A DNA stretch of 64,000 bases from an uncultured Pseudomonadota bacterium (GTDB lineage Bacteria; Pseudomonadota; Alphaproteobacteria; Rs-D84). Made by a program: the position numbers and the translations under genes. The DNA is taken from positions 142,831-206,830 of the forward strand of contig CACZJK010000001.1 in the NCBI GenBank assembly GCA_902781465.1, read 5' to 3'. Positions 2,638-24,765 of this stretch are shown here, piece by piece. How positions within the stretch are numbered: the stretch's first letter is position 1; every line of letters starts with the position of its first letter. Below the pieces are notes generated by a model that worked only from the letters and a program-made list of their open reading frames with translations, did no database searches and was not told the origin of the DNA.

Positions 2638-2641
2638 GACA

Positions 2642-6997: not shown

Positions 6998-7010
6998 ATT
7001 TTTCAAATAA

Positions 7011-8334: not shown

Positions 8335-8910
8335 TTAGTAATTATATGTGACCCCAATACCGTAAAAAGCGTATGAATTATTTTCTTCCGCAGTATTAGC
8401 ATTTGAAAAATGTTGAATAAAGAATTCTGTTGCCCATTGTTTGTTGATATTGTATCCCAATGTCACTTTGAATTCGAATATTAACTTGGCGCCAAGACGT
8501 TCGTTTTCTTGGGCCTGTAAGCCGGCACCGGCACCAAGACCACCGTATAAACGCTTATAACGGAAAAGCGCAATATCTTCGGTTAAATAAAACATAGGTA
8601 TTGTATAATCCTGCCATTTCCAGCCATATTTTTCATGAAATCCCAATGTTTCAGATATGTTTATCGAACGACGTGCCGGAACACGAAAGAAAGTTGTTGG
8701 TTGGGAATATGTAAAAGTCCCAATATAAAAAGGAACAGGGCGGGTTGGTGGCGGTAAAAGCCATCCTGTATCAAAACCTTGCCCAATTCCAAAACCGATT
8801 TGTTGTTGATATGTGCCCATAAAAGGATTTTTATCAGGTAAAACACAACTATCGGCCATTGCAGGTGCAATTGAACATAATATTGGTAATACGGCTAATA
8901 ATTTTCTCAT
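8335..8910 (-). CDS. Small outer-membrane beta-barrel protein (PagL/OmpW-like size); probable start MRKLLAVLPILCSIAPAMA
   Basis: Signal peptide; alternating amphipathic strands; ends in an aromatic residue (…GVTYNY). The six-frame ORF extends to 8958. Confidence 0.5.
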   Translation of the reverse strand: MRKLLAVLPILCSIAPAMADSCVLPDKNPFMGTYQQQIGFGIGQGFDTGWLLPPPTRPVPFYIGTFTYSQPTTFFRVPARRSINISETLGFHEKYGWKWQDYTIPMFYLTEDIALFRYKRLYGGLGAGAGLQAQENERLGAKLIFEFKVTLGYNINKQWATEFFIQHFSNANTAEENNSYAFYGIGVTYNY

Positions 8911-8952
8911 ACGGGACATTATATCATAAAAAAGCAGATAAAACAAATATTG

Positions 8953-8980
8953 TTGCAAAGTAAAAAAAGTCTGTTATAAT
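8953..8980 (+). promoter_or_regulatory. Sigma70-like promoter TTGCAA-16-TATAAT upstream of the tRNA-CAU gene
   Basis: TTGCAA 8953-8958, TATAAT 8975-8980; tRNA 5' end at 8991. Confidence 0.5.
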
Positions 8981-8990
8981 GCTTTTCGCT

Positions 8991-9065
8991 GGCGGCGTAG
9001 CTCAGTGGTAGAGCAGAGGAATCATAATCCTTTGGTCAGGGGTCCGAATCCCTTCGCCGCTACCA
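8991..9065 (+). tRNA. tRNA with CAU anticodon (elongator Met or lysidine-modified Ile2; arm sequences resemble E. coli ileX)
   Basis: Cloverleaf folded by hand: acceptor GGCGGCG/CGCCGCT, D arm GCTC-AGTGGTA-GAGC, anticodon loop ATCATAA (CAT), T loop TCCGAAT, encoded CCA. Confidence 0.85.
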
Positions 9066-9208
9066 AAATAATAAACGACCCTTGTGGTCGTTTTTTATTT
9101 TGATATCTGGGATTTGGACACCGATCCCGGGGTCCGACAACAAGTAGATTTTGGAAGCGGTAGCGCACCAAAATCGTCACGGTTGCCCCGCAGGCATTTA
9201 TGCCGAGG

Positions 9209-9225
9209 GAATCCCTTCGCCGCTA
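9209..9225 (+). repeat. Direct repeat of the tRNA-CAU 3' end (GAATCCCTTCGCCGCTA; tRNA copy at 9046-9062), preceded by a second copy of the T-stem fragment GGGGTCCGA at about 9129; att-like scar or decayed partial tRNA duplicate
   Basis: Exact 17-bp match read directly; the intervening approximately 146 bp contain a terminator hairpin (GACCCTTGTGGTC) and a tRNA-like fragment GGTAGCGCA. Confidence 0.6.
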
Positions 9226-9289
9226 TTTATAAAAATTCCTTTCTTTTTAATAAATATGGTGCAATATTTACTTGGGCGAGGTATAAAAA

Positions 9290-10132
9290 ATGAAAAATAT
9301 TTTAATTACTGGTGCAAATGGTCAATTGGGGTCAGAATTGGCAAGGATTATGCCATCGGCTGTTTTGACGGGACACAATGTTTTAGATATTACTGATAAG
9401 GTTGCTGTTGATAAATTTATAAAATCAAGAAAGATAGATACTGTTATAAATTGTGCTGCTTATACTGCGGTTGATTTAGCAGAAGATAACTATGATGATG
9501 CGTATAAAATAAATGCAATTGGACCAAGAAATTTAGCACAAACAGGATGCAAAATAATTCATATATCAACAGACTATGTTTTTTCTGGAAATGCGAAAGT
9601 CCCATATAAAACAACAGATAAAACAAATCCTTTGTCTGTGTATGGTTCTACTAAATTGGCCGGGGAAAAAGCGATTTTAGAAAATTCTGAAAACGGTATA
9701 ATAATCAGAACTTCTTGGCTATATTCTGAATTTGGAAAGAATTTTGTTAAAACTATGCGCAATCTTGGTGCAAGCAGAAGTGATATTTCGGTTGTTGCGG
9801 ATCAATACGGTTTGCCAACTTATGCGGCGAATTTAGCCTTTGCTATTTTTCAAATTATCCCACAAATAAAGCCGGATAATTCAGGTATATATCATTATTC
9901 AAACTCTGGTTCAGGAATTTCTTGGTATAATTTTGCAGATGAAATAATGAAACAATCTGGTTTGAACTGTGTTGTAAAACCTATAACCACAGATCAGTAT
10001 CCAACACGTGCAGTGCGCCCAAAGTACAGCGTAATGAATACTTCTAAAATACAGAAAACTTTTGGTGTAAAGATACCAATGTGGCAAGACGCGCTGAAAC
10101 ATTGTATCAAAGAATTGGAAAAACAGCATTAA
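9290..10132 (+). CDS. rfbD: dTDP-4-dehydrorhamnose reductase-like (RmlD family) NAD(P)-dependent reductase
   Basis: N-terminal ILITGANGQLGSEL Rossmann motif and overall RmlD length (280 aa); no rmlABC nearby, so the exact substrate is uncertain. Confidence 0.65.
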   Translation: MKNILITGANGQLGSELARIMPSAVLTGHNVLDITDKVAVDKFIKSRKIDTVINCAAYTAVDLAEDNYDDAYKINAIGPRNLAQTGCKIIHISTDYVFSGNAKVPYKTTDKTNPLSVYGSTKLAGEKAILENSENGIIIRTSWLYSEFGKNFVKTMRNLGASRSDISVVADQYGLPTYAANLAFAIFQIIPQIKPDNSGIYHYSNSGSGISWYNFADEIMKQSGLNCVVKPITTDQYPTRAVRPKYSVMNTSKIQKTFGVKIPMWQDALKHCIKELEKQH

Positions 10133-10176
10133 ATATATTGAAAAAAAGTGCTTTTTATGATATAATATAAACCAGT

Positions 10177-10222
10177 TCGACGGGGGATGCCGTCGATTTT
10201 TTTTATGCCGGGTTTTCCCGGC
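10177..10222 (+). terminator. Tandem terminator hairpins (CGACGGGGGATGCCGTCG then GCCGGGTTTTCCCGGC), each followed by a T-run
   Basis: Read directly downstream of the rmlD-like gene. Confidence 0.5.
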
Positions 10223-10249
10223 TTTTTTGTTATAACAAAAGGATAAATA

Positions 10250-11164
10250 ATGAATAAATTTATATTTTCTGGAAATGGTAAAAATAAAGATTTTTATTTT
10301 ACTTTTCCTTTCTTTTCAAATGCTGATATTGTTGTAAAAATCAACAATGATTTAGCGACCGGATATGGTGTTTTCTGTATTCCTGGTACAGGCAATAATG
10401 ATTTTCCTTTTACAGGTGGCCATATTCATTTTGCAACCGCACCAAAGACAACTGATGTCATAACCATAGAACGCAAATTGCAATTAAACCGCCTGATAGA
10501 TTATCAACCAACAGCGCCTCTTAATTCAACAACAGTTAATCAAGATATGAATTATTTCTTTGAATTGCTGAAAGATGTAAAAAGTGAATTGCTGGGTTTT
10601 GCAGAAACTTATAAAGAATTCACAGATACAGAAAGTGCGCAAGAATTGTTGGCGCGCATAGATGCTGTTATCGAAGAAATAGATAATCTTGGCGATATAT
10701 CAACGATAACAAGCAGTATATCAGAACTGGGCTCGTCGATAACAAGTTTGACTAATTCTTTGAACAGTTTGACAAGCACAGTCGGTGCGCATACGACAGA
10801 TATTGTGGCGCTTAGCGCTTTCAAAGACGGGGTTCTTGATTATGTGGTTGAATCGCAAGAACCAACCGCAGAAAACAATTATACCTGGTATCGAAAATAC
10901 AAATCTGGCTGGGTCGAACAAGGAGGTCAGATAACAAACAATAATGGTACTGAAAGAACTATATCTTTACCAATAACTATGACAAATACGAACTACACAT
11001 ATAACGATTGCTTTGAAACAATTATTCGCGAAGGCGGAAGCCCATGGCGAATAGTCGACACACCAAATGTATTAACAAACAAAACAACGACATCTTTTAC
11101 AAGATATATGCCAGATTGCGCAACAATAATACGTTGGAGTGTCTATGGCATTGCAAGCAATTAA
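10250..11164 (+). CDS. Phage tail-fibre-like protein with a T7 gp17-type N-terminal tail-attachment domain, a coiled-coil/Ser-Thr-rich shaft and a C-terminal globular tip
   Basis: N-terminus FSGNGKNKDFYFTFPFFSNADIVVKINN...DVITIERKLQLNRLIDYQP parallels T7 gp17 (DGSNRDFNIPFEYLARKFVVV...TTIELRRVTSTTDRLVDF); middle SSISELGSSITSLTNSLNSLTS repeats; followed by a hairpin terminator at 11165-11195. Confidence 0.55.
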   Translation: MNKFIFSGNGKNKDFYFTFPFFSNADIVVKINNDLATGYGVFCIPGTGNNDFPFTGGHIHFATAPKTTDVITIERKLQLNRLIDYQPTAPLNSTTVNQDMNYFFELLKDVKSELLGFAETYKEFTDTESAQELLARIDAVIEEIDNLGDISTITSSISELGSSITSLTNSLNSLTSTVGAHTTDIVALSAFKDGVLDYVVESQEPTAENNYTWYRKYKSGWVEQGGQITNNNGTERTISLPITMTNTNYTYNDCFETIIREGGSPWRIVDTPNVLTNKTTTSFTRYMPDCATIIRWSVYGIASN

Positions 11165-11177
11165 AAAACGGTTGTTT

Positions 11178-12254
11178 TTACAACCGTTTTTTTCTGTTTT
11201 GTATTTTGTATTTTATCATTGCACCACCATACCAAAAACAAGAAATTATATCTGCAATATAATGTCTTATTTTTTTTAATCTACAAAACGGACGTACTAC
11301 AATCTTATAATGATTTGCAAAATGTTCTTTTAAGTTTTCAAAATATTCACCATTATAATAATCTTTATAAGATTCGTCACAATATCTTTTATAATCTTTT
11401 ACAAAAGTTGGATATAAATATATGCCATGAATCCAATCATCTGCAGCAAGATAATCTTTGTTTTTAGAAAGTTTTTTATATGTTTTTTTCTGAATATATA
11501 CACCAATTTCATTAAACCCAACCGATATAACATTATTAGCTAATAATATATGCGATAATTGAACTTTATCTAATGTATAATCTAATTGGTCTTTCATCTT
11601 GCATTCAGGAAAATAGCGAGAAAAGAAATTCATTCCAACCCATTGTTCTGGCGGAAATTTCCAAGTTGCACCTTTATCGAGTATTTTGAAACCTGTATTT
11701 TTTTCATAAAACAACGAAAAATCAGGTTCATTTGTCAACGGACAGTCATAATAATCTTTTACATCTTCAGTTAACCCAAAACACAACCAATCACTTAAAT
11801 CAAAAGGTCTATCAATAACAAATTTTGGAGATAACGTTTCTTGATAACGAGAAAATATACTATAAAATAAAACACGCTCTTTAAATATTGAATATTTTTT
11901 ATCCCGTTTTGGAAATTGTTTTGCAATATCATTTAATATTTTTGAATTTGTAAATATTAAATCGGAACGCATACGAATAACATATTTTGTTTTAACCGCA
12001 CCTAAACCAGCCTTGGAAGTCACCAAAATACGGTTGGTCATATTGCTTAAAGTTTTTGTTATTTTTGTTGCGCCAGGATCATCAGATTCAACCAAAACAT
12101 CATAATCAAGTCCATCAACATTATGATTTTTATATGTTGAAAATATAATAGTTGCCCCAGGCAAATATTTACGGATGCTTTTTATACATCTTTTTGTCTG
12201 ATGTTTTATGTTTATCCCTTGAACAACAACAGATATATCTTTTGGATTTATCAT
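11178..12254 (-). CDS. Putative LPS/polysaccharide biosynthesis protein (WavE-like family)
   Basis: N-terminal ISVVVQGINIKHQTKRCIKSIRKYLPGATIIFSTY resembles the WavE family start; Y/W-rich and AT-biased like the surrounding glycan genes. Family call is tentative. Confidence 0.35.
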   Translation of the reverse strand: MINPKDISVVVQGINIKHQTKRCIKSIRKYLPGATIIFSTYKNHNVDGLDYDVLVESDDPGATKITKTLSNMTNRILVTSKAGLGAVKTKYVIRMRSDLIFTNSKILNDIAKQFPKRDKKYSIFKERVLFYSIFSRYQETLSPKFVIDRPFDLSDWLCFGLTEDVKDYYDCPLTNEPDFSLFYEKNTGFKILDKGATWKFPPEQWVGMNFFSRYFPECKMKDQLDYTLDKVQLSHILLANNVISVGFNEIGVYIQKKTYKKLSKNKDYLAADDWIHGIYLYPTFVKDYKRYCDESYKDYYNGEYFENLKEHFANHYKIVVRPFCRLKKIRHYIADIISCFWYGGAMIKYKIQNRKKRL

Positions 12255-12979
12255 TTATAATCCTTTTTATTAAAATAATATGTATTATTTCTATCCCAAA
12301 TAAAATTACCAGATTTTAAAACTTTTGCTGGTTGTCCACAGAATATATATGGTTTTTTACTGTTTTTTGGATTTGATGCAGACGTATACAATGTTCTCGC
12401 TCCCAAAATTGAACCATCTGGAATATTCGCACCTTTTAATATTAAACATTGTGTACCAACCCAAACATGATTTCCTATCATTATATTCTTTGGTTTATTA
12501 ATGGCATCACCTTTGTCATCTATTATCGCATGTCCATCCGAAGGCCATATTGTTATATCAAAAGACAACATACAATCCTTGCCTATTTTTACAATTCTTT
12601 CTGGTTCATCATGTAACCATATTTTTGCACCTTCAACAGAACAATCAGAATCTATAAGCAACTTGCTGTATCTTGACATTCTAGCAGGTATGATTAAATC
12701 TTTTATATAAAAGTTAGTTTGTTTTATTTCTATAATATTATCATCACCTACTTCAAAATAACAATTGATAAATCTATAAGGTTCATGTATTTTTACAACA
12801 CTATTTTGCCCCAAAAATTTAATTGTTAATCCTTTGACTTTTTTTATTTCTTTTATTTTGCCATCTTTTTTAACAATTAATATTTTGTTGTTCTTTATTC
12901 TGGACAACATGTCAAAATATTTACATGTTTTACCAAAAGTTAAATGCTTTAATAATCTATATAAATTATTACGCGACAT
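12251..12979 (-). CDS. Hexapeptide-repeat (left-handed beta-helix) O-acetyl/acyltransferase
   Basis: Hexapeptide repeats IGNHVWVGTQCLILKGANIPDGSILGARTL; typical WbbJ/NeuD-like size. Confidence 0.6.
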   Translation of the reverse strand: MSRNNLYRLLKHLTFGKTCKYFDMLSRIKNNKILIVKKDGKIKEIKKVKGLTIKFLGQNSVVKIHEPYRFINCYFEVGDDNIIEIKQTNFYIKDLIIPARMSRYSKLLIDSDCSVEGAKIWLHDEPERIVKIGKDCMLSFDITIWPSDGHAIIDDKGDAINKPKNIMIGNHVWVGTQCLILKGANIPDGSILGARTLYTSASNPKNSKKPYIFCGQPAKVLKSGNFIWDRNNTYYFNKKDYK

Positions 12980-12982
12980 AAC

Positions 12983-13990
12983 CTAGCCTTTGTAATTTTT
13001 TTGATATTCAATAATTTCTTTTAATCCGTCCAATAAATCTGTTTTTGCAACATAGTCAAATTCAGCACGGACTTTGTCGCCATTACCAAGGCAATGTTTA
13101 AATACTTCTTGTTTTACGCGTTCTTTTTTCAAGTTATAACGCGCATTAAACAATTCTTCGTATTTATCCCAAAACTTTAATGGTTCACCTGTATCATATT
13201 CTAATTCTTTACCCAACGCAGCATAGATTGTTTGAGCTATTTCCATTGCAGAATATGCTTTACCGGTTGCCAAATTGAAAATATCTGCATGATATTCTTT
13301 GTCTGACATTGCCATACGATACAAATATTGCATCAAATCATAAACATAGATATAATCGCGTTTACAATCTTCTGTGTTATAAATTGTTGGTTTACGTCCC
13401 GCCAATGCTTCACGAATCAAGAAAGATGTAAATGGTGGATATTTACGTTTAAAATCTTGGTGTGGACCAAACACGTTAAAGAAACGACATATTACAATAT
13501 CCATACCATAATTTTGTGCAAATGATTTACAAATTTGTTCTGAACAATATTTAGTTGTTGCATAAACTAAATTTGGGTGAACTTCATCTGTTTCTTTGTG
13601 AACTTCATCAGATGGATTGTTTTCATAAATTGCAGATGTTGATGCGAATATAACACGTTTTACATTGCTGCGACGAACCGCATTTAATACATTAGCAGTT
13701 GCAGCCGTATTCACATCAAACGCTTTATATGGATGTGATTCACATTCTGGTAACGCAGAAATCCCAGCAAAATGATAAACAATATCAATTCCTTCTAAAT
13801 ATTTACCAAAATCAGGGTCACGAACATCTGCCATGATAAAGTTTTGTTTTAACGTTTCATTATCTTCAAAATTATCACGATAACCATATTCCAAATTATC
13901 CAACAATTTTACATTATGTCCTTGAGATAATAAAAATTTTCCCAATTCAGAACCTATGAAACCTGCACCACCTGTGATAAGAATATTCAT
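12983..13990 (-). CDS. NAD-dependent nucleotide-sugar epimerase/dehydratase (extended SDR)
   Basis: MNILITGGAGFIGSELGKFL Rossmann motif; YxxxK region; 335 aa. Confidence 0.75.
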   Translation of the reverse strand: MNILITGGAGFIGSELGKFLLSQGHNVKLLDNLEYGYRDNFEDNETLKQNFIMADVRDPDFGKYLEGIDIVYHFAGISALPECESHPYKAFDVNTAATANVLNAVRRSNVKRVIFASTSAIYENNPSDEVHKETDEVHPNLVYATTKYCSEQICKSFAQNYGMDIVICRFFNVFGPHQDFKRKYPPFTSFLIREALAGRKPTIYNTEDCKRDYIYVYDLMQYLYRMAMSDKEYHADIFNLATGKAYSAMEIAQTIYAALGKELEYDTGEPLKFWDKYEELFNARYNLKKERVKQEVFKHCLGNGDKVRAEFDYVAKTDLLDGLKEIIEYQKNYKG

Positions 13991-14005
13991 GTTTTTCCCT
14001 TTTGT

Positions 14006-15064
14006 TTAATCTATGTAATCTTTGATTGACGAATTACGCGGTAATGTGATTGCAATGCCAGAAGGATATGGATTTGTTGGTGCAAAATCATTTATAACTA
14101 CACGTGCCGCGTGATTCATTCCCATTAAAATTGCATATGGTTTTATGCCAACTTCATTTAACATTTTTTGAAGGTTTTCACGAAATTCTTCGCCACGTGA
14201 AGTTGTTATAACTATTTGTGCGCCGTTATCCTGTAATTGTTTTAATGTTTCCACATTGTCTTCCAACATGGTTGTATTGTTATACCAATTTATTTTTCCA
14301 TATTTGCCAGAATTTTTCATTATAACACCATCAACATCTACAAAATATGTGCGGTGTTGTTTTTGAACTTTTTTCCATTCAGTTAATGTTCCCCAATCAT
14401 CATAAGAATCTGCATAAACCGCCTCAAAAACATAATTATCAGATGATAACATATACGAAATTACGTGTGATATATACATTTCGCCAGAAATTTGGTGGCT
14501 TTGCATTTCTTCGTATGCTTTTACAAAATCGTTTGCGTTTTCAAAACAATATACCCCCAAACAAATTACATTTGATACAACCTGTTTTTCGATAATGTCT
14601 TGGATAACACCTTGTTCATTTACTATCAAGAAACTTTTCCCTGGGATATTTGTGACGTCACGATGTTTATGCAAATCATACCCAACAATCATATTTTTTA
14701 TTTGTTTATCAAAATGAACACCAACACGATTATCTGAATCTTTGATAACAAAAGAACCTTCGACATTCATTTTCTTTAGTGTTAAATATATTGTTTCGCT
14801 GGCGCTTGAAGTAAAATCGTCCAATAAACAAATTTCTACCTTTGGATTGTTTTCAAAGACTTGATGCATAATAAGGTTTGCTTCGTATTTATCGTCGTGT
14901 GGTTTTACGATTGTAATTATGATACGGTCAAAAACGTCAATATTGATGTTTTCCATAGCCTTTTCAATCATTAATTTTCCATCTGGATGAGTAAGCATAT
15001 ATTTGGGTTTCATATTTGGGAAACGACTTGATTTTCCAGCACATGGAATTATAAGGGTATTCAT
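14006..15064 (-). CDS. Bifunctional sugar-phosphate/phospho-alcohol nucleotidyl(cytidylyl)transferase (LicC/IspD-like N-domain) fused to a HAD-family phosphatase domain
   Basis: N-terminus LIIPCAGKSSRFPNMKPKYML (nucleotidyltransferase G-loop); C-terminal YFVDVDGVI...TTSRGEEF (HAD motifs I-III). Confidence 0.55.
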   Translation of the reverse strand: MNTLIIPCAGKSSRFPNMKPKYMLTHPDGKLMIEKAMENINIDVFDRIIITIVKPHDDKYEANLIMHQVFENNPKVEICLLDDFTSSASETIYLTLKKMNVEGSFVIKDSDNRVGVHFDKQIKNMIVGYDLHKHRDVTNIPGKSFLIVNEQGVIQDIIEKQVVSNVICLGVYCFENANDFVKAYEEMQSHQISGEMYISHVISYMLSSDNYVFEAVYADSYDDWGTLTEWKKVQKQHRTYFVDVDGVIMKNSGKYGKINWYNNTTMLEDNVETLKQLQDNGAQIVITTSRGEEFRENLQKMLNEVGIKPYAILMGMNHAARVVINDFAPTNPYPSGIAITLPRNSSIKDYID

Positions 15065-15924
15065 TATTTATTCTCCTTATTATCTAAAATGTTATTCAAT
15101 TTCGTGATTGCGTTATGTAAAAATGTCCGTGTAGTATCATCTTTTGCGTATGGGACAATTCGCATAACATTTAAAAGCAAGATGTAATAAATCTGTAAAA
15201 CTTTTTTATTACCATCCGGTAATTCAGAAATGTATTTAATTAAGCCATCGCGCGCGACCGCCAATCTTAATTCAAGATTTGACGATATTTCTTCATGACG
15301 ATAAGACCATTGTAATTCAAGATCTTGTAATAGTTTTGCCACATCTATCATCCAAGAATCGAAAAATGAATCTAAAAAGTCTATTAAATAAATATTGCCT
15401 TTGACGTCTAATAATATGTTTTCTAAAGTTAAATCACCGTGACATTTAGAATACGGAATTTCAGAAAAATTAAAACCTTCCAATCTTTTTAGTGCGTTTA
15501 TATAAATGTCTTCGGTTGGAATATTGTTATAAAGCGATTTAATTTTCTTTTGAAAAATTTCATTTGTTTCTGGCATAACAACACTATCATCAATGTGTAA
15601 TTCATTAACAACCCATTCAACAAATGCAGGTATTTCTTTGATTGATACTGTTTCCATATACTTCGCCATTGTACAGCAATTCAAATATTCCATATCAAAA
15701 TAAAAAATACCATCTTGGATACCTGTTTTATAAATTTGCGGAACACGAATATTTGAATTTTTCGATGATTTATAACCAACTTGTTTTGCGATTTGTATTC
15801 GTAATCTTTTGTTATAATCTGGACGCCCCGCTGTTTTACGGACGAAGAAAAGATCATTTTCGCGGAACAGTGAAATTTCACATCCACTGTGTCCCGATAA
15901 ATTTTTTATAAATTGTTCTGACAT
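15064..15924 (-). CDS. Choline/aminoglycoside-kinase-family small-molecule kinase (LicA-like)
   Basis: Brenner motif HGDLTLENILLD and DFLDSF metal-binding motif of the APH/ChoK fold; stop/start is coupled with the cytidylyltransferase gene. Confidence 0.55.
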   Translation of the reverse strand: MSEQFIKNLSGHSGCEISLFRENDLFFVRKTAGRPDYNKRLRIQIAKQVGYKSSKNSNIRVPQIYKTGIQDGIFYFDMEYLNCCTMAKYMETVSIKEIPAFVEWVVNELHIDDSVVMPETNEIFQKKIKSLYNNIPTEDIYINALKRLEGFNFSEIPYSKCHGDLTLENILLDVKGNIYLIDFLDSFFDSWMIDVAKLLQDLELQWSYRHEEISSNLELRLAVARDGLIKYISELPDGNKKVLQIYYILLLNVMRIVPYAKDDTTRTFLHNAITKLNNILDNKENK

Positions 15925-15946
15925 TATTTTTTCCTAAAATATTCAA

Positions 15947-16834
15947 TTAATCAAATTTTCCAATTGAAAAGACAAAACTAAACCAGTTAAACAAATTGAT
16001 ATCTATGTTCGTTATTGGCGGTAAAATACGCAATAAGTGAATAAAGATACCTTTTTTCCTTAAATGGAAACTTATTATGTTTGAACGGTTTAATTTTATT
16101 TGTGCAAAGCGTTTAATCTTGAAAGATTTTATATATTGATACGAACCAAGATATACTGGACGTAAATTATGTGATAAAATATTATCTATTAAAAAACCTT
16201 CGGCATGATAATCTATGTTATCTCCTTTTTTTGCAGGCACTTTTAATTTGTCGCAAAGTTTTGATATTGCTTTTGCACCACCAAAAAATAATAAATCGAC
16301 AGTTTCAACATAATTTAATCCATACATATCACGATCTGGGGTGTGTCCTGCCAGATATATATTTGTCCCATCTTGATTAAATTTATCGTTTATGTATTTT
16401 TCAATCTTCAAATCTTCTAACAACACAACATCAGGTCTTATACAAACAACCATATCGTATTTAATCTTGTGTTTTTTTTGGTAATCTTCGCGTAATTTAT
16501 TAACTGTTTTAATAGAATGATATACAGACATTAAACCTTGAAGAGCGAATTCGTATCCGTGGACTATAATTTTATCGTCAGTATATAATTTTTGATGTTC
16601 GATTTTGATTTGTTCTGGCAAAATACCGAGTTTTTGTATTATTTGTTCTTGATTAACTTTCTTATTTACATTTTTGAAATTATTATGCCAAGTCTTTGAA
16701 TTATGGTTGTATGTATCCCATGTATGCATAAAAATATCGCACTCATAGCGATTTAATAAGTGTCTTTTTATTGACGGCAGGCATTTTTCAAATGTCCTTA
16801 AATGACCAAAAAATTGAACCGCTATGCGTGGCAT
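15947..16834 (-). CDS. Hypothetical protein, possible sugar transferase; first gene of the minus-strand glycan operon
   Basis: 295-aa ORF immediately outside IR-L of the invertible segment; no firm motif. Confidence 0.45.
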   Translation of the reverse strand: MPRIAVQFFGHLRTFEKCLPSIKRHLLNRYECDIFMHTWDTYNHNSKTWHNNFKNVNKKVNQEQIIQKLGILPEQIKIEHQKLYTDDKIIVHGYEFALQGLMSVYHSIKTVNKLREDYQKKHKIKYDMVVCIRPDVVLLEDLKIEKYINDKFNQDGTNIYLAGHTPDRDMYGLNYVETVDLLFFGGAKAISKLCDKLKVPAKKGDNIDYHAEGFLIDNILSHNLRPVYLGSYQYIKSFKIKRFAQIKLNRSNIISFHLRKKGIFIHLLRILPPITNIDINLFNWFSFVFSIGKFD

Positions 16835-16860
16835 AAAAAACTCTTTTTTTCTATAAAAAC

Positions 16861-16881
16861 CAATCGGTCGTTTGATGTTTA
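16861..16881. repeat. IR-L: CAATCGGTCGTTTGATGTTTA, left arm of a 21-bp perfect inverted repeat (hix/gix-like recombination site)
   Basis: Exact reverse complement of 17577-17597; contains the imperfect palindrome ATCAAACGACCGATTGAT, whose half-site ATCAAAcgACC resembles the Hin/Gin half-site ATCAAAAACC. Confidence 0.8.
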
Positions 16882-17489
16882 CAGGTTTTGACTGTGCAAA
16901 AATGCGTAAAGTGTTGGTGGGGAAATTTTGAATTTTCTGGCTATTTTGGTCTTTGGCATGTCTTTGGCATACCTTGTTTTATCATATTTATTATTTTGTT
17001 TTCGTTGCCATCGATTTTATGATGCGTGTTTTTACTGCCAAAACGCCGCCCAAGAATCACACCTGCTTCGCGACGGCGCGCCAAGGCTTCACGTGTGCGC
17101 AGACTGATTAAATCTCGTTCTATTTCTGCGGAAATTCCAAACGCAAAAGCCAATACTTTCGATTGAATATTGTCACCCAATTCATAGCCGTCTTTGACGG
17201 TATAAACATAAGCCCCACATTTCATACAATGTTCCAAAATTCGCATAATCATAAATAATTTTCGGCCCAGGCGCGATAATTCAGAACAGATAATAATGTC
17301 GCCGGTTTTCAGTTTTTTCAAAATTCCACCAAGTGCACGATTATTTGGTTCGACTGTCCCAGAAATTCCAGAATCCATAATATATTTATCTATTGTTATT
17401 CCCATAGATTTGGCCTTGGTTATAATTCCTGTTTTCTGGTTTTCACAGTCTTGTTTATCTGTGCTGACGCGAATATATCCGTATATCAT
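16879..17489 (-). pseudogene. Hin/Gin/Cin-family small serine DNA invertase, frameshifted by an 11-bp tandem duplication; the present ORF (16941-17489) lacks the C-terminal HTH
   Basis: N-terminus MIYGYIRVSTDKQ (catalytic Ser) and resolvase core. The + strand shows GTCTTTGGCAT twice in tandem (16949-16959, 16960-16970). Removing one copy restores ...GMPKTKIARKFKISPPTLYAFLHSQNL* with a Hin-type HTH and a stop at 16879-16881 inside IR-L. Confidence 0.7.
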
Positions 17490-17543
17490 TTTGTTTTCCT
17501 TTTTTTGTGTTGTTATATCCAAATAGGAAAACAAACAAACGCT

Positions 17544-17572
17544 TGATATTAAAGAAACTTATTTGTATAGTA
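17544..17572 (+). promoter_or_regulatory. Near-consensus sigma70 promoter TTGATA-17-TATAGT inside the invertible segment, reading outward across IR-R into the + glycosyltransferase operon
   Basis: TTGATA 17544-17549, 17-nt spacer, TATAGT 17567-17572; RBS AAGGA then ATG at 17623. Confidence 0.55.
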
Positions 17573-17576
17573 TTCA

Positions 17577-17597
17577 TAAACATCAAACGACCGATTG
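17577..17597. repeat. IR-R: reverse complement of IR-L (AAACATCAAACGACCGATTG plus flanking base)
   Basis: Exact 21-bp inverted match to 16861-16881. Confidence 0.8.
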
Positions 17598-17622
17598 ATT
17601 TTAATAAAATAAGGATTTTTAT

Positions 17623-18702
17623 ATGGCAAAAAAGATTTTCGTTTCTTTGAAAAAATTTTCTATTAATTTTGTGGGGTTAAGGTTTAAAAGACATCATATT
17701 AAAAATAATACTATTTTATTACTGGAAACTAATGTTTGTCATGGTGAAGTTATGTCGGGTTATATCGAATACTTCAAAAGATTGGGATATAATATAGATT
17801 GCGTTTTACATACAGATTTTTTACAAGATAATCCTTTTTCAAGACATGATATGTCAAAAATAAACTGTTTTTATTTAAATAAAATTTGTATGAAAAGATT
17901 TATAAAATACAAAAATATTCGTAAATATAAACATGTTGTTATTATGTCTAGTACTTATTATGGAGATTTTGGTTGGGAAGGCGTGATTGATTTTGCGCCT
18001 GAATTAAAACGCCACCCTTCTGTTTATCTTGTCGAACACGAATTGAATTGTATCGAACCGCAAAACGAACAAGAATACCTTGATAAAAATCATATAATAG
18101 TTCTTGGTAAGTTTGATCGTGGTGTTTTTGTGAACCCGCATTTGTTTGGTAATGTAAAAATTACCAAAAAGAACAAAATTCCAACTTTTATAAGTGTTGG
18201 TGGAATTATGGCATTCAGGAAAAATCATGCCGAATTGATTTCTGCAATACAGGAATTGGTTAAACAAAAACAGAAGTTTAAAGTGGTTGTTATTGGGCGT
18301 GGAAAATTAAATGATTTGCCAGATGAAATCAAACCTTATATTGAAATTACAGGGCGTTTAAATTTTCCAGAAATGTTTGAACAAATGGAAAAAGCAGACT
18401 TTTTCCTGCCTTTACTTGATCCAAATAATCCAGACCATGAACGCTATATTACAACCGGTGTGACAGGTTCTGCTCAATTGATATACGGTTTTGAAAAGGT
18501 GCCTGTGATACAAAAAAAGTTTGCAAAGTTTTATCGTTTCAACAATAAAAACGCGATAGTTTTTGAAAAAAGTTTGGCAACCGCCATGTCAAAAGCCATT
18601 TCTTTATCAGGACAAGAATACAATACTTTGCAATCAAATTTACACAAAACCGCACAAGAAATTCAAAAAGAAAGCTTTGATAATTTGAAAAGGATATTTT
18701 AA
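17623..18702 (+). CDS. Hypothetical protein, possible GT-B-fold glycosyltransferase; first gene of the + glycan operon
   Basis: C-terminal KVVVIGRGKLNDLP...EITGRLNFPEMFEQMEKADFFLPL resembles the C-domain of GT4-like enzymes; weak. Confidence 0.4.
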   Translation: MAKKIFVSLKKFSINFVGLRFKRHHIKNNTILLLETNVCHGEVMSGYIEYFKRLGYNIDCVLHTDFLQDNPFSRHDMSKINCFYLNKICMKRFIKYKNIRKYKHVVIMSSTYYGDFGWEGVIDFAPELKRHPSVYLVEHELNCIEPQNEQEYLDKNHIIVLGKFDRGVFVNPHLFGNVKITKKNKIPTFISVGGIMAFRKNHAELISAIQELVKQKQKFKVVVIGRGKLNDLPDEIKPYIEITGRLNFPEMFEQMEKADFFLPLLDPNNPDHERYITTGVTGSAQLIYGFEKVPVIQKKFAKFYRFNNKNAIVFEKSLATAMSKAISLSGQEYNTLQSNLHKTAQEIQKESFDNLKRIF

Positions 18703-19658
18703 TGAAAATATCAATTGTTGCACCGATTTATAACACTGGAAAATTCTTACCAGAGTGTATTGATAGTGTATTAAATCAAACTTTCCAAGATTGGGAATTG
18801 ATTCTGGTGAATGATGGATCACCAGATAACAGCGAAGAAATTTGTAAAAAATATATAAAGAAAGATAAAAGAATACGGTATTTTTATCAAAAAAATTCTG
18901 GTGTTTCTGTGGCGCGCAATTTAGGTATATCAAAGGCAAAAGGTGAATATGTTTTTTGTATGGATTCTGACGATACTTTGGATTCCAGATTTATTGAAAC
19001 TTCTTATGATGTCGCAATTAAAAATGATTCTGATATAGTCGTTATTGGTGATTGGTTTGCATGTCGTTTGCCACGGCCCGCAGCACTGCCAACTTGTGCA
19101 ATGTTATTGCGTAAAAGTTTTTTAGATAACCACAAAAATATTCGTTACCCCATTGGAATACAACCATGTGAAGATGGTCTTTTTTCACATCAATTATTGG
19201 CATTGACTGATAAAATCGCTTTTAATCCAATGGGAATATATAATTATCGTGAACACGAAAACGGAAACCATATTGCAATAAATAAATCATGTGAAAAAGT
19301 GTTAAAGCAAATTCCACAATGGTTTGAAATATTGGAAAAGTTTTATGATAAATATGATCTTTGGGATAAACATGGTTCGCATCTTTTGAAATTTATAGAA
19401 CACGAACCTTTTGATTTCAGATTTAGATCGATGCCATTTTCTTCAGATCAAAAAGAATTTTTATTTAAAATAATACACGATTTTATGAATAAACATAATT
19501 TAAGAAAGTATAGAAATAGAAAATTGTCAAAGCGATTTAGATTGTTTTTGTTAGCTTCTTCTTATATAAAATATGAAAAATATATATGCATATATAATTC
19601 TATAGTCAAATTTTTACATACATTTAAACAGCGCAGACCAGAAAAGGATAACACATGA
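18702..19658 (+). CDS. Glycosyltransferase family 2
   Basis: ISIVAPIYNTGKFLPECIDSVLNQTF...ILVNDGSPD...MDSDD (GT-A DXD). Confidence 0.85.
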   Translation: MKISIVAPIYNTGKFLPECIDSVLNQTFQDWELILVNDGSPDNSEEICKKYIKKDKRIRYFYQKNSGVSVARNLGISKAKGEYVFCMDSDDTLDSRFIETSYDVAIKNDSDIVVIGDWFACRLPRPAALPTCAMLLRKSFLDNHKNIRYPIGIQPCEDGLFSHQLLALTDKIAFNPMGIYNYREHENGNHIAINKSCEKVLKQIPQWFEILEKFYDKYDLWDKHGSHLLKFIEHEPFDFRFRSMPFSSDQKEFLFKIIHDFMNKHNLRKYRNRKLSKRFRLFLLASSYIKYEKYICIYNSIVKFLHTFKQRRPEKDNT

Positions 19659-20815
19659 AACTGTTGTTAGTTGTAAATTCGTCTCTTATTAATTCTACCG
19701 GTGGTGTTGAGCACGTTTTGTGTGATATGGCAAATGAAATGGAAAAACGTGGTTTTGATGTTCATATTGCAACAATGGAAAACAAAGAAGGAAAGCCTTT
19801 TTTCTATTTAAATAAAAATATAAGTTTTAAGAATTTGTACCCAGAATTGAGCAATAAAAATAAATTTATAAAAAAATTGATATCGCTATTTTTGAAGATA
19901 GCAGGCAAAAATAATTATAGGGATTTTTATTTCAAATCTTTAGTTTATCAAAAATATATACATTCTATTCAACCAGATTTAATAATAGCTTTTTCTTTGC
20001 CGACATTATTGGAGATGACATATACGAATAAAGGAAAATGTCCAATTATATTGACTGTTCATGGAAACCCAGTTAATGATTATACAGATAGGTTTTGGTC
20101 AAGGCCAACTTATATGAATAAATTATTTAGAAAAACTTATAAAAATGCAGATGTTATACAGGTCCTTTTGGATAGTTATAAATCTTTTGTTCCAAAAGAA
20201 TATAAGGGTGAAGTAATAACAATTGGAAATATAGCACCTTTTGTCTCAAAAGAACCGTTGTCATTAGATAAACAAAAAATTACAAGTATTGGACGACTTT
20301 GTTTGGAAAAACATCAAGATTTATTAATAAAGGCTTTTGCTAAAATCAGTGATAAATTTCCAAATTGGTCTTTGGATATATATGGTGAAGGTTATTTAAG
20401 AGAAGAATATCAAAGCCTGATTGATAAATTAAAAATGACAAAAAAGATTCATTTAAAAGGTACTAGCAAGAAAACGAAAGAAATTTTAATAAATTCTTCC
20501 TTATTTGTTTTACCGTCACATGTTGAAGGGTTCCCTTTGGTGTTAGCAGAAGCAATGGGAGTAGGGTTGCCTTGTATTGGATTGCAAGATTGTGATGGGA
20601 CAAATGAAATTATAAAACATAAAGAAACAGGTTTTTTGGTTGCTGATGATGAAAATGATTTGGCAAAAGCGATGAGTTTGTTGATGTATGATTCTAAATT
20701 AAGACAAAAATATGGAAAAAACAGCCAACATGAAATGTTGCAATATTCATCTAATATAATTTGGGATAAATGGGAAGATTTAATTAAAAAAACAATCAAC
20801 GAAAAGAGAAAATAA
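19655..20815 (+). CDS. Glycosyltransferase family 4 (GT-B)
   Basis: C-terminal EGFPLVLAEAMGVGLPCIG motif; overlaps the upstream gene by 4 nt. Confidence 0.85.
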   Translation: MKLLLVVNSSLINSTGGVEHVLCDMANEMEKRGFDVHIATMENKEGKPFFYLNKNISFKNLYPELSNKNKFIKKLISLFLKIAGKNNYRDFYFKSLVYQKYIHSIQPDLIIAFSLPTLLEMTYTNKGKCPIILTVHGNPVNDYTDRFWSRPTYMNKLFRKTYKNADVIQVLLDSYKSFVPKEYKGEVITIGNIAPFVSKEPLSLDKQKITSIGRLCLEKHQDLLIKAFAKISDKFPNWSLDIYGEGYLREEYQSLIDKLKMTKKIHLKGTSKKTKEILINSSLFVLPSHVEGFPLVLAEAMGVGLPCIGLQDCDGTNEIIKHKETGFLVADDENDLAKAMSLLMYDSKLRQKYGKNSQHEMLQYSSNIIWDKWEDLIKKTINEKRK

Positions 20816-20816
20816 T

Positions 20817-21695
20817 ATGAAAAAGAATTTACCGGTTTGTAATCTTAGTGTAAAAGCTGGGTTGGGAAATAGGATAAAAGGATTGTTTTCTTTTATTCGT
20901 CAATATCAACCAAAAGAAATGATTTTAATTTGGCCTAAAACTCTTGTCAAAAAATCTTTTTTAGAATTATTTTGCTTTGATTATCCTGTAAAAATTTATG
21001 AAAAAGATATTCCAAATTATAATATCCCTGAACAGTCTTGGCGTTTTTATGTGTCAGAATCCGACAATATTTCAAAAAACTTTTCAAAAATTCCATTAGA
21101 TTTTAATGACCCTGTTTTTGATTTGGAATACAATAGAACACCAAAAAGAATGGTAAAAGTATATTCGCAATATTTTCAAAAATTAAAACCAAACGCAAAT
21201 ATTCAAAAAATTATTAATTCTGTTATATTGCCAAAAAATACAGTTGCTTTGCATGTTCGAAACCATTCTGATTGGAAAGATGGTGGTAGAAATACAAATT
21301 TGAAAGAATTTACCAAATGTATGGATAAATATTCTAAGGATACTTTTTTCTTTTTATCTGCTCATGATAAAGATATATCTGATTATTTTAAGAAAAAATA
21401 TAAAATAATAGAAGTTCCAAATAAAAATTATTCATCAATAGAATATGCGATTGCTGATTTATATTTATTATCAAAATGTAAAGAAGCAATTTATTCTTGT
21501 GGTTCTACTTTTTCAGAAATCTCTTGGTGGATTGGCGGGTGCAAGGCCAAAGCGCATGTTATAGGCTCTTATGATGATTGGGTTGAAGTAAATAAAAGAA
21601 TTAAATTTTTCAGAATAGAAAAAACTGAAAATCGTACAAGATTTTACTTTTTTGGTAAAAAAATATTATCGATAAAAAGACCTACTAAAAAATAG
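20817..21695 (+). CDS. Putative fucosyltransferase-like glycosyltransferase (GT11-like motifs)
   Basis: HVRNHSDW (compare GT11 HxRRGDY) and C-terminal CGSTFSEISWWIG (compare GT11 SNSTFSWWAA). Confidence 0.4.
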   Translation: MKKNLPVCNLSVKAGLGNRIKGLFSFIRQYQPKEMILIWPKTLVKKSFLELFCFDYPVKIYEKDIPNYNIPEQSWRFYVSESDNISKNFSKIPLDFNDPVFDLEYNRTPKRMVKVYSQYFQKLKPNANIQKIINSVILPKNTVALHVRNHSDWKDGGRNTNLKEFTKCMDKYSKDTFFFLSAHDKDISDYFKKKYKIIEVPNKNYSSIEYAIADLYLLSKCKEAIYSCGSTFSEISWWIGGCKAKAHVIGSYDDWVEVNKRIKFFRIEKTENRTRFYFFGKKILSIKRPTKK

Positions 21696-21707
21696 CAGGT
21701 CTAATAT

Positions 21708-22013
21708 TCATGCCTTTGGATATTTTGATTTTATCTCGGCAATTTTTTCTTGCCATTTGTTTGTGTTGTTAACTTTATCCCAATATATCATATCCAGTTG
21801 TTCTGAAATGCTTGGATATTCATTTTGCCTTTTTTCAACGTAAGTTTTTTCTGGTTCAATTGGTGCATAACCTTTGACATACAAAAGTCCATCATATCCG
21901 GTTTCTGTTTCGCCTGTATAAACTTCCATGCCCCATTTTTTTACTCGTTCTTGATTGTTTTTTGTATCAAGCCATTCATTTAATATAAAACTATTTTTTT
22001 CTTTGACTAACAT
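21708..22013 (-). CDS. Small phage-associated protein (about 101 aa), probable tail-fibre assembly/chaperone-type partner; start MLVKEKNS overlaps the upstream stop (TAATG)
   Basis: TAATG stop/start overlap with the tail-fibre-like gene; acidic, W/Y-rich. The six-frame ORF extends further to 22088, inside the upstream gene. Confidence 0.4.
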   Translation of the reverse strand: MLVKEKNSFILNEWLDTKNNQERVKKWGMEVYTGETETGYDGLLYVKGYAPIEPEKTYVEKRQNEYPSISEQLDMIYWDKVNNTNKWQEKIAEIKSKYPKA

Positions 22014-22540
22014 TATAAACTCCCTTTTAACGGAAAAATTTTTAAAGATCTGTCCACGTTGCGACCGCCAACCATTTTCCAATACCACCCTTTTGGAACA
22101 TAAAATTCACCAGAAATTTTAAAAGAACCAGAGCCTGCATTTGATTCACGTAATGTTGTAAAAGTATTGCCATCAGAAGACACACATGGGGCAACATTAG
22201 GATTTCCATCAATGTGATTAGTCTGATAATTAACAACACAATCATAATCTGCTAAATATGTTGTGTCCCAATTCTTACTGACAGGTGCAGAATAATCTGG
22301 CGTTGATAGGTTAGATATAACTTTTTTACCTGTTGTGCTTATGTTATCCATATCTGTATTGGCTTTTGATGTGACGGTTGGTATTTCGCTTTGTTTGGCC
22401 AATTTTATGCCGCCTGCGGTTTCACCATCGTGAACACGTAATGTTTTATTTGTTGTGTCCATGGTGACTTCGCCAATTGCGCCGGTAAAGGCATCATTTT
22501 CCGTCGCTGTTCCGCGACGAATTTGTATTTGTCTTGACAT
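22013..22540 (-). CDS. Small phage tail-fibre-like protein carrying the HylP/tail-fibre N-terminal motif
   Basis: IQIRRGTATENDAFTGAIGEVTMDTTNKTLRVHDGETAGGIKLA matches the conserved N-terminal block of phage hyaluronidase/tail-fibre proteins (…RxxxAxW…L..GE.G.ETDT..lK.GDG). Confidence 0.5.
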   Translation of the reverse strand: MSRQIQIRRGTATENDAFTGAIGEVTMDTTNKTLRVHDGETAGGIKLAKQSEIPTVTSKANTDMDNISTTGKKVISNLSTPDYSAPVSKNWDTTYLADYDCVVNYQTNHIDGNPNVAPCVSSDGNTFTTLRESNAGSGSFKISGEFYVPKGWYWKMVGGRNVDRSLKIFPLKGSL

Positions 22541-22674
22541 TAAATTACTCCATTTTTATATAAAAAAGGCCGGCATTTGCCGGCAATTAAACAAATAAAA
22601 ACGACGGTTTTGCCCCATCGAATTGCTTTTATTATATCATAATTTCAATAAAAAATCAATGTTTTGCTTTTTAT

Positions 22675-22702
22675 TTGATTTTTTGCGATTCATGGGTATA
22701 AT
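22675..22702 (+). promoter_or_regulatory. Sigma70-like promoter TTGATT-16-TATAAT for tRNA-Thr
   Basis: TTGATT 22675-22680; TATAAT 22697-22702; tRNA starts at 22714. Confidence 0.5.
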
Positions 22703-22713
22703 ATCTGGCGATT

Positions 22714-22787
22714 GCCCTAATAGTCTAGTGGTAAAACACGTCCTTGGTAAGGACGAGTCGCAAGTCCGATTCTTGCTTAGGGCACCA
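22714..22787 (+). tRNA. tRNA-Thr (GGU)
   Basis: Acceptor GCCCTAA/TTAGGGC; anticodon stem CGTCC/GGACG with loop TTGGTAA; T arm GCAAG-TCCGATT-CTTGC; encoded CCA. Confidence 0.85.
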
Positions 22788-22948
22788 GGTTTTTTCAAAT
22801 ATGTTGATGCGACTGACAACCGCGGAGTGTTTGTGAAATCTTAAAAGTAAGAAAAGCAGGGTGGCACCGCGCGAAAAAATCTTAGCGCCCCTGTGATTTA
22901 AGATTTGAATTGGTGCCGTATCCAAAAATTTTATTACGACACCGAAAT

Positions 22949-22972
22949 CCCACTTCGCCAAGGCTTCGTGGG
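22949..22972 (+). repeat. Conserved hairpin motif CCCAC-TTC-GCC-AA-GGC-TTC-GTGGG (copy 1 of 2; copy 2 at 55151-55176)
   Basis: Shared core CTTCGCCAAGGCTTCG; the outer stem differs by compensatory changes (CCCAC/GTGGG versus CCCGCC/GGTGGG). Confidence 0.4.
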
Positions 22973-22995
22973 ACAAGCAAAAAAAGGTGTAAAAA

Positions 22996-24765
22996 ATGCT
23001 TTCTTTGAAATCTAAATACAGAACGCATACCTGTGGTGAATTGACTGAAAAAAACGTTGGTGAAGTTGTCACTTTGTCAGGTTGGGTTCATCGTAAACGC
23101 GATCATGGTTCTTTGTTATTTGTTGATTTGCGTGATAATTATGGAATAACTCAGTGTGTGTTTGATGGCGGGGATGAAAATTTAGAAAAAATTCGTCCTG
23201 AATCTGTTATCAGAATTACTGGTAAAGTCGTTGCGCGTGATGCAGAGGCGATTAATGATAAAATCCCAACTGGTCATATTGAAATAAAATCTGAAAATTG
23301 GGAAGTTTTAACAAACGCAGAAGTTTTGCCTTTCCAAGTTTTTGGCGATGAAGATACCAGTGAAGAATTGCGTTATAAATATCGTTTCTTAGACTTGCGT
23401 CGTGAAAAATTACACCACAATATTTTAATGCGCAATAAAATGATGAAGTGGTTGCGCGATAAAATGTGGGATATGGGATTCAGTGAATTCCAAACACCTT
23501 TGTTGACGGCTGATTCCCCAGAAGGTGCACGTTGTTTCTTGGTCCCAAGTCGTTTGCATCATGGTAAATTCTATGCGTTGCCTCAGGCGCCACAGATGTT
23601 CAAACAATTGTTGCAAGTATCTGGGTTCGACAGATATTTCCAAATTGCACCTTGTTTCCGTGATGAAGATTTGCGCGCAGACAGATTGTTAGAATTTTAT
23701 CAATTAGATATCGAAATGTCCTTTGTGGATCAATCTGATATTCAGGCGGTTGGTGAAAAATTGATGCCTGAATTTGTAAAGGCTTTTGCGCCAGATGCAA
23801 ATGTATATCCTGAAATTCCACATATTTCTTTTGACGATGCGATGTTGAAATATGGTTGCGATAAACCAGATCTTCGTAATCCTATTTTGATATCAGATGT
23901 GACGGATGTTTTCCGTGGTTCAGATTTCGGAATATTCGCAAATGCAATTGAAAACGGTGCGGTTGTGCGTGCTGTTCCTGCGCCAAAATCATCTGATAAA
24001 CCACGTTCTTGGTTTGATAAATTAGGTGATTATGCGGTCAAAGAATTAGGTCTTGGTGGGTTAGGTTATATAGTTTTTGCCGAAGAAGCCAAAGGTCCAG
24101 TTGCAAAGAAATTGGATGCAGACCGTATCGCCAAATTACACGAAATTGCAGGCGATAATTCTTCGATATTCTTTATTTGTGATATGGAAGAAAAGGCTGC
24201 AAAAACCGCCGGTAAATTACGTAATAAATTGGGTGAAGATTTGGGCTTGGTCAATCCACGTGATTTTGCTTTTTGTTGGGTTGATAATTTCCCGTTCTTT
24301 GAACCAGATGAAGAACGTGCAGGTGCACCAAAGTTCACACACAATCCGTTCTCTTACCCAATTGCGACATTGGAAGAACTGAATACAAAAGATCCTTTCT
24401 CTATCAAGGCGGCGCAATTTGATATGGTGTTAAACGGTATTGAAATTTGCAGTGGTGGTTTGCGTAACTATAACCCAGATGTTATGAAAAAATGTTTTGA
24501 TATCGCGGGTTATCCAATCGAAGCCGTTGAACAAAACTTTAATGCTTTGTACACTGCGTTCAAATATGGCGCACCACCACACGGTGGATGTGCGTTTGGT
24601 ATTGAAAGATTGGTTTCTGAAATCTTGGGCGATGGTGAAAGCGTTCGTGAAATCGTTGCGTTCCCTGCGAACCAGCGTGGCCAAGATTTGTTAATGGGAT
24701 CGCCAAACGAAGTGACTGAACAACAATTACGTGATGTACATATTCAAGTACGTAAACGTGGTTAA
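22996..24765 (+). CDS. aspS: Aspartate--tRNA ligase
   Basis: 589 aa; class II aaRS motifs (FRDEDLRADR, GGCAFGIERL); N-terminal OB anticodon-binding domain. Confidence 0.95.
   Translation: MLSLKSKYRTHTCGELTEKNVGEVVTLSGWVHRKRDHGSLLFVDLRDNYGITQCVFDGGDENLEKIRPESVIRITGKVVARDAEAINDKIPTGHIEIKSENWEVLTNAEVLPFQVFGDEDTSEELRYKYRFLDLRREKLHHNILMRNKMMKWLRDKMWDMGFSEFQTPLLTADSPEGARCFLVPSRLHHGKFYALPQAPQMFKQLLQVSGFDRYFQIAPCFRDEDLRADRLLEFYQLDIEMSFVDQSDIQAVGEKLMPEFVKAFAPDANVYPEIPHISFDDAMLKYGCDKPDLRNPILISDVTDVFRGSDFGIFANAIENGAVVRAVPAPKSSDKPRSWFDKLGDYAVKELGLGGLGYIVFAEEAKGPVAKKLDADRIAKLHEIAGDNSSIFFICDMEEKAAKTAGKLRNKLGEDLGLVNPRDFAFCWVDNFPFFEPDEERAGAPKFTHNPFSYPIATLEELNTKDPFSIKAAQFDMVLNGIEICSGGLRNYNPDVMKKCFDIAGYPIEAVEQNFNALYTAFKYGAPPHGGCAFGIERLVSEILGDGESVREIVAFPANQRGQDLLMGSPNEVTEQQLRDVHIQVRKRG

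Follow-up and report, generated by a model that had tools for sequence, protein, structure and literature searches.

A Hin-like DNA invertase, encoded within the cassette that it would invert, carries a frameshifting 11-bp tandem duplication in an uncultured gut/rumen alphaproteobacterium. The reading that we consider probable for this stretch of DNA (the window, 64,000 nucleotides or 64 kb) is that the duplication has created a recent loss-of-function allele of the cis-encoded, Hin-like invertase, and that the cassette is now frozen in its current orientation.

On the plus strand, positions 16940 to 16975 consist of GCTATTTTG, two tandem copies of the 11-mer GTCTTTGGCAT (16949-16959 and 16960-16970), and ACCTTG. 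Tandem Repeats Finder (TRF) returns a single array at 16949-16970, with a period of 11, 2.0 copies and a 100% match; thus, both the sequence and TRF bear out the tandem repeat that a preliminary description of this DNA had placed here. No further copy of GTCTTTGGCAT is present beyond this array in the 64-kb window, and the array is the longest perfect two-copy tandem duplication that the window contains. When 60 random sequences with the composition of the window were drawn from a first-order Markov model, 4 contained a perfect duplication with a period of at least 11 (mean 0.07 per window), and the repeat by itself exceeds chance only modestly. The case for a true duplication event is made because single-copy alleles are known from comparison (see below), not by repeat statistics. 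There is no microhomology at the borders of the duplication: copy 1 is preceded by G and copy 2 by T, and the base that follows copy 1 is G, while A follows copy 2.

The invertase gene starts at the ATG at 17489 (minus strand), which is preceded by AAGGAAAACAAA. In its current form, the protein ends in ...KQGMPKTCQRPK* after 182 aa, at a premature TAG (16941-16943). Removing one 11-mer yields a protein of 199 aa that ends in ...KQGMPKTKIARKFKISPPTLYAFLHSQNL*, with a stop at 16879-16881 inside the left inverted repeat (IR-L). The frameshifted minus-strand translation, its restoration upon removal of one copy and the position of the restored stop within IR-L are therefore all as they were initially described. 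A Pfam search finds the catalytic domain (PF00239) at residues 2-144 (E=2e-30) in both the current and the restored protein. The helix-turn-helix (HTH) domain HTH_7 (PF02796) is found at residues 160-193 (E=1.2e-7) in the restored protein only; the current 182-aa protein has no match to it in Pfam, and the HTH said to be regained after removal of one copy is indeed regained. The broader statement that the duplication deletes the HTH needs to be narrowed. In an alignment that uses gamma-delta resolvase (1gdt, 1zr2) and Gin (4m6f) as references, the break falls between HTH helix 1 (NENKIINMIKQG), which is retained, and helices 2-3 (KIARKF / SPPTLYAFL), which are gone. Ser9 in YIRVSTDKQ is aligned with the catalytic Ser of gamma-delta resolvase and Gin. 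The phmmer scores for gamma-delta resolvase (E=4.6e-13) and for Gin, the nearest solved invertase (E=3.5e-12), are alike; the similarity to known members appears to be at the family level only, a level at which sequence does not separate resolvases from invertases. The ancestral gene is a member of the small serine recombinases, and the current allele appears to be a truncated pseudogene. Since a catalytic domain that is deprived of its DNA-binding domain does not find its sites in the case of gamma-delta resolvase and Hin, the 182-aa allele is presumably inactive.

Table 1. Features of the invertible cassette and of its surroundings (window coordinates)
Feature	Position	Strand	Remarks
Minus-strand glycan operon	11178..16834	-	DUF7796, APH-like kinase, nucleotidyltransferase/HAD fusion, epimerase/dehydratase, unknown protein, WavE
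Left site, IR-L	16855..16880	+	half-sites AAAAACCAATCG / CGTTTGATGTTT; 2-bp core GT at 16867-16868
Rest of ancestral invertase ORF, out of frame (HTH helices 2-3)	16879..16948	-	same as in the intact allele, with no additional mutation
Serine recombinase (DNA invertase) gene, current form	16941..17489	-	182 aa, catalytic domain only; identical to public P0123
11-bp unit GTCTTTGGCAT, second copy in gene sense	16949..16959	-	TRF, sequence
11-bp unit GTCTTTGGCAT, first copy in gene sense	16960..16970	-	frame +2 from here
Invertase leader hairpin	17490..17535	-	Shine-Dalgarno region (AGGAAAACAAA) paired with upstream complement
Outward sigma-70-like element, TTGATA-17-TATAGT	17543..17571	+	consensus match and conservation
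Right site, IR-R	17578..17603	-	core AC at 17590-17591 (GT on minus strand)
First glycosyltransferase (GT) gene of the promoter-proximal operon	17623..18702	+	GT4-type; 359 aa here
Plus-strand glycan operon	17623..21695	+	Glyco_trans_1_4, GT2, GT4/GT1, unknown 292-aa protein

Intact alleles are known from the same species. The restored 199-aa protein is 100% identical to the public protein P0001, which is encoded on contig k141_945248 (310,225 bp) of assembly ERZ27280330. Over the 20.6 kb compared (window 6879-27405), this contig shows 0 mismatches and exactly two indels, one of them the 11-bp unit and the other 84 bp in length. The scaffolds of a second assembly, ERZ28613905, are 100% identical to window positions 1-12637, 17676-23658 and 26423-64000, and in its 760-bp cassette contig the 11-mer occurs once and mismatches number 0. 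Together, these twin assemblies contain no mismatch or SNP over about 60 kb of the window; near 38.8 kb, what at first resembled a third difference from ERZ28613905 was discarded as a 100-N scaffold gap with a 55-nt overlap. A single copy of the 11-mer is also present in L084, L112, P0121 and P0122; L086, which shares the gene layout of L084, probably has one too. In all, the single-copy form is found in at least six same-species assemblies. Among species-representative genomes, each of 80 relatives (80/80; uncultured rumen and gut Alphaproteobacteria, many of them labelled Candidatus Enterousia) gives one uninterrupted full-length match that extends through the HTH, at 62-89% identity, and the duplicated form is thus not the conserved allele. 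In public data, the 182-aa form is represented solely by P0123, which lies on a single contig of 309,873 bp (NCBI, ENA) that is probably the window's own source. Because the near-identical assemblies and the 80 relatives all carry the intact form, the duplication is derived, very recent and private to one assembly rather than conserved, and the suggestion of a recent inactivation finds support in the strain comparison.

Unusual copies of the invertase are also present elsewhere in the family. A paralogous invertase (67% identity; L055 6001-6228, MAG Lapin-005 bin117) has an unrelated premature stop after 75 aa, and its tblastn match is full length despite this stop; it represents another inactivated family copy. 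P0122, which lies on L113 (ERZ27280375 k141_84127, positions 1-1258), is a hybrid invertase. Its C-terminal two thirds match the window, as do IR-L and the flank with DUF7796 (88.8% nt). The 60 aa at its N-terminus, like the 550 bp upstream, are unrelated to the window and GC-richer, and an upstream repeat is lacking. This locus may be a recombinant or a chimeric contig.

The invertase gene is located inside a 723-bp cassette, between two hix-like 26-bp sites in inverted orientation. With their extended arms, these sites form 36-nt inverted repeats (16846-16881 and 17577-17612) that are 89% complementary. Each site contains 12-bp half-sites with 9/12 dyad symmetry around an asymmetric 2-bp core, an arrangement that follows the hix/gix design, and the ancestral stop codon of the invertase forms the inner edge of the left site. 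The 22-nt site core pattern occurs at these two places only in the window (0 expected by chance), and the 64 kb contain neither a further copy of the site nor a second invertase gene. When metagenome contigs of JGI were scanned for the site core AAWCGGTCGTTTGATGTTT, there were 10 matches, none with an invertase homologue or with similarity to the window; most are on GC-rich contigs, and they were dismissed as relatives of the cassette, having the look of chance matches.

An orthologous cassette, whose invertase is 89% identical, inverts in nature. It is found in both orientations: in L099, as in the window, the 5' end of the invertase adjoins the Glyco_trans_1_4 operon, whereas in L098 it is the 3' end that does so. 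The L098 and L099 cassettes are co-linear at 94.7%, their flanks are reversed on opposite sides (90.8% over 2.1 kb), and the outer half-sites and flanks have been swapped exactly at CGGTCG, the site core. For the strain of the window, assembly ERZ28613905 is cut into a left scaffold, the 760-bp cassette contig and a right scaffold, with 55-nt overlaps. One break is at 16861, directly after the single mismatch of the outer arm, and the other is at 17577, where IR-R has its inner edge; L002 corresponds to window 16861-17631, L088 starts from window 17577, and scaffold_21 ends near window 16915. Such breaks would be expected in the assembly graph if a minority of reads, and of cells, had the inverted junction, and we infer from them, indirectly, that the cassette of this very strain may also invert. 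L085 starts inside IR-L.

Since 77 distant paralogues (62-75% identity) are without tight flanking inverted repeats, of which none was seen within 220 bp upstream or about 120 bp past the stop, the cassette architecture appears to be specific to the closest clade. Only a few short inverted-repeat pairs occur around these paralogues, in flanks that extend up to 6 kb to either side. In other Enterousia-like MAGs, inverted-repeat pairs of 21-22 nt surround about 75-80 bp at L058 1488-1611 and L062 2652-2766, at a distance of 3-4.5 kb from paralogous invertase genes; these pairs may be small invertible promoters that are served in trans.

The cassette separates two divergent surface-glycan (LPS/LOS-type) operons. 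The minus-strand operon begins 44 bp past the ancestral invertase stop. There is no terminator in these 44 bp between the invertase and the DUF7796 operon, and invertase transcription probably reads into that operon. At the other end of the cassette, the TTGATA-17-TATAGT element is positioned between the invertase ATG and IR-R, and is aimed through IR-R at the GT ATG at 17623. The corresponding element in L098 and L099 is TTGATT-17-TACACT, with both the position and the -35 hexamer conserved. A promoter scan gave 10 sites versus 6.7 in shuffles, and in AT-rich DNA a consensus match alone is weak. We treat the outward element as a putative promoter, whose direction would tell which operon is ON; the assertion that the plus-strand GT operon is promoter-proximal is consistent with this anatomy, in which the outward element faces the GT gene. 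The leader of the invertase is predicted to fold into a hairpin with arms UUGUUUUCC/GGAAAACAA in the window and GUAUUUUUCC/GGAAAAAUAC in L098 and L099 (about 5960-6000), the changes between them being compensatory. With a fold z=-3.5 in the window, the hairpin probably acts as a translational brake that keeps invertase levels low.

Just beyond the plus-strand glycan operon, positions 22013-22540 (minus strand) encode a 175-aa protein that matches Mtd_N (PF18454), followed by a 101-aa ORF. Mtd_N is the N-terminal domain of the major tropism determinant of diversity-generating retroelements. Positions 46868-51668 (plus strand) contain three tandem paralogous genes for AMP-binding enzymes (530, 526 and 526 aa) with ~72% nucleotide identity.

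In the mechanism that we propose, the intact invertase would flip its own 723-bp cassette by crossover at the 2-bp core of the sites. Because the outward promoter lies beside the invertase 5' end, the flip would re-aim it from one operon to the other, and the invertase transcript would probably run into whichever operon lies past the invertase 3' end. The 11-bp duplication shifts the frame after Thr177. The product lacks helix 2 and the recognition helix, and what remains is the catalytic domain with the E-helix, followed by the arm region and HTH helix 1. Such a truncated invertase would no longer be targeted to the sites, and the cassette would be frozen with its outward promoter toward the plus-strand GT operon, unless the duplication collapses or a paralogous invertase from another part of the genome recognises the sites. 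Tandem duplications are intrinsically unstable, and the 11-bp duplication can revert by slippage. The switch would in this way be locked, a term that may be wrong because related MAGs often hold 2-3 paralogous invertases; the recognition helices of these paralogues differ from that of the window.

How far this mechanism applies depends on whether the duplication is present in the organism, and a second lesion bears on this question. The first GT gene of the plus-strand operon has a private, in-frame 84-bp deletion at 17675/17676, which removes 28 aa (LFFFWNKNIRRRVKDFLRDFHIFSFLEM). The 387-aa form of this GT is present in all of the other assemblies (ERZ27280330, ERZ28613905 and SRR27787361), and the 28 deleted residues are conserved in the orthologues of L098 and L099. 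No microhomology is present at the borders of the deletion; the recurrence of ACAAAAATATTCGT in the 84-bp segment, at 17909 and at 19132 was discounted, being at chance level for a 14-mer in AT-rich DNA. In about 60 kb, the window differs from the twin assemblies solely by this deletion and the 11-bp duplication, and the two lie only ~700 bp apart, the duplication 68 bp inside IR-L and the deletion 63 bp outside IR-R. This clustering fits both a local mis-assembly or mis-polishing where the two orientations coexist and selection on a phase-variable surface locus. We lean toward the view that the lesions are real mutations. In that event, the 84-bp deletion probably damages the operon that the frozen promoter faces. 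The opposite view, which we hold to be rather unlikely, is that the contig presents an artefact of assembly or polishing, or a minority variant taken as the consensus, such that the organism's invertase is intact; both lesions would then have arisen during contig building, in a region with mixed reads of the two orientations. Two assemblies of the same strain that have neither lesion and 0 SNPs over about 60 kb speak for an artefact, as do the proximity of the two differences to each other and to inverted repeats, where inversion heterogeneity confounds read mapping, the lack of border microhomology at both of them, and the breakage of the ERZ28613905 assembly graph exactly at the repeats, which indicates heterogeneity there. 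A comparable discrepancy exists between L100 (= L003, RUG14344; positions 725-800) and its near-identical twin L099 (positions 6610-6665). The only indel between these two sequences, which are 99.3% identical, is a 37-bp tandem duplication that holds the whole downstream recombination site; it is either a second tandem duplication at such a switch or an assembly problem. However, De Bruijn assemblers need reads that contain the novel junction CAT/GTC in order to produce it, the two copies match perfectly and are joined in exact register, and elsewhere the 64 kb are free of the indel noise that is typical of poorly polished long-read assemblies. In addition, selection on a phase-variable surface-glycan locus likewise predicts clustered real lesions. 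A stronger version of this last idea, in which both lesions are real and were co-selected in the animal gut to give a phase-locked, glycan-remodelled escape variant, such as might arise under pressure from phages or antibodies, seems improbable to us.

Other readings accept the duplication as real and differ on what it does or where it came from. It might be a reversible, second-order switch, a lesion that reverts at high frequency and so turns the invertase, and with it phase variation, off and on. The general instability of tandem duplications, a background that is otherwise identical to that of the intact-allele assemblies, and the presence of another tandem duplication at the orthologous switch in L100 are compatible with this idea, but the duplicated allele is a single occurrence, set against more than 80 relatives and at least six assemblies of the species, the spot has neither a repeat tract nor microhomology that would make the duplication recur, and the L100 duplication differs in both place and length. 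We regard such a switch as very unlikely. We give as little credence to a split gene that is still functional, with a 182-aa fragment and a 26-aa peptide that work together, or with the fragment as a dominant-negative or regulatory subunit. The ATG at 16959-16957, supplied by the second copy, opens an orphan ORF, MPKTKIARKFKISPPTLYAFLHSQNL, which is in frame with helices 2-3, overlaps the end of the first ORF and continues to the ancestral stop at 16879-16881; moreover, the catalytic domain and the E-helix, which provide the dimer and tetramer interfaces, are intact. Against this, the 26-aa peptide is without HTH helix 1, the arm region and a good Shine-Dalgarno sequence (the nearest candidate is an AAGG 12 nt upstream), and no relative has a split architecture. 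In addition, from what is known of Hin and gamma-delta resolvase, a catalytic domain alone does not bind its sites, nor do short HTH fragments of Hin bind hix. A transposon footprint, that is, an 11-bp target-site duplication left behind, was rejected, there being no IS remnant present; it is also unlikely given that cut-and-paste excision in bacteria normally leaves no clean duplicated target site. A programmed frameshift was rejected as well, since no relative has the duplicated arrangement.

The loss-of-function allele that we favour can be compared with several characterised systems. Like the Salmonella Hin/H-segment, the cassette is an invertible segment of <1 kb that encodes its own small serine recombinase, has 26-bp sites with two 12-bp half-sites and an asymmetric 2-bp core in inverted orientation, and carries within the segment an outward promoter (here, a promoter-like element) that would decide expression outside. 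Salmonella that is defective in hin is phase-locked, and a frozen cassette would be expected here too upon loss of the recombinase. Unlike the Hin system, the half-sites are unrelated to hix, the predicted toggle is between two divergent glycan operons rather than ON/OFF for one operon, the promoter-like element is at the 5' side of the invertase, the left site contains the end of the invertase ORF, and the host is an alphaproteobacterium with a reduced genome. Inversion systems of the Hin/Gin type require a recombinational enhancer bound by Fis; in an alphaproteobacterial lineage, another accessory factor may serve instead, or none at all. The phage tail-fibre invertases Gin, Cin and Pin share the protein family and the type of 26-bp site. 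However, their genes are outside the invertible segment, and inversion swaps the coding 3' ends of tail-fibre genes with no promoter being moved; nothing phage-related is seen at the present locus. Bacteroides fragilis Mpi and other gut invertons resemble the cassette in that a serine recombinase inverts promoters of alternative surface polysaccharide loci in a gut commensal. In contrast to the present case, in which the recombinase is inside the single segment to be flipped and the 64 kb contain only two sites, Mpi is encoded apart from the many small promoter segments that it inverts in trans; by this layout, the cassette is not a trans system of the Mpi type. Phase-locked recombinase mutants are a familiar phenomenon, one example being recV mutants of C. 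difficile (PMC7446863). In recV and hin mutants, as proposed here, recombinase loss freezes the switch in the orientation held at that time. Those mutations are mostly from the laboratory or from clinical isolates and affect characterised systems, whereas the present one is a natural frameshift in one metagenome-derived contig, known from sequence alone.

The frameshift is an ordinary event, a routine pseudogenisation in a conventional kind of switch. For annotation, the gene is to be described as a frameshifted invertase and not as a short resolvase, and the locus is flagged as one at which assemblies of one strain disagree. Genomes of the order Rs-D84 / Enterousia are smaller than about 1 Mb (PMC12306168), and with such genomes the retention of a switch is mildly interesting. 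The cassette is minimal and self-contained, with an invertase, a putative outward promoter and two hix-like sites that would toggle two divergent glycan operons. Were the co-selection of both lesions true, a reduced-genome symbiont would have been caught disabling its own bet-hedging switch. Provided that the frameshift is real, this strain represents a phase-locked variant from nature, which may be used to ask what purpose the switch serves.
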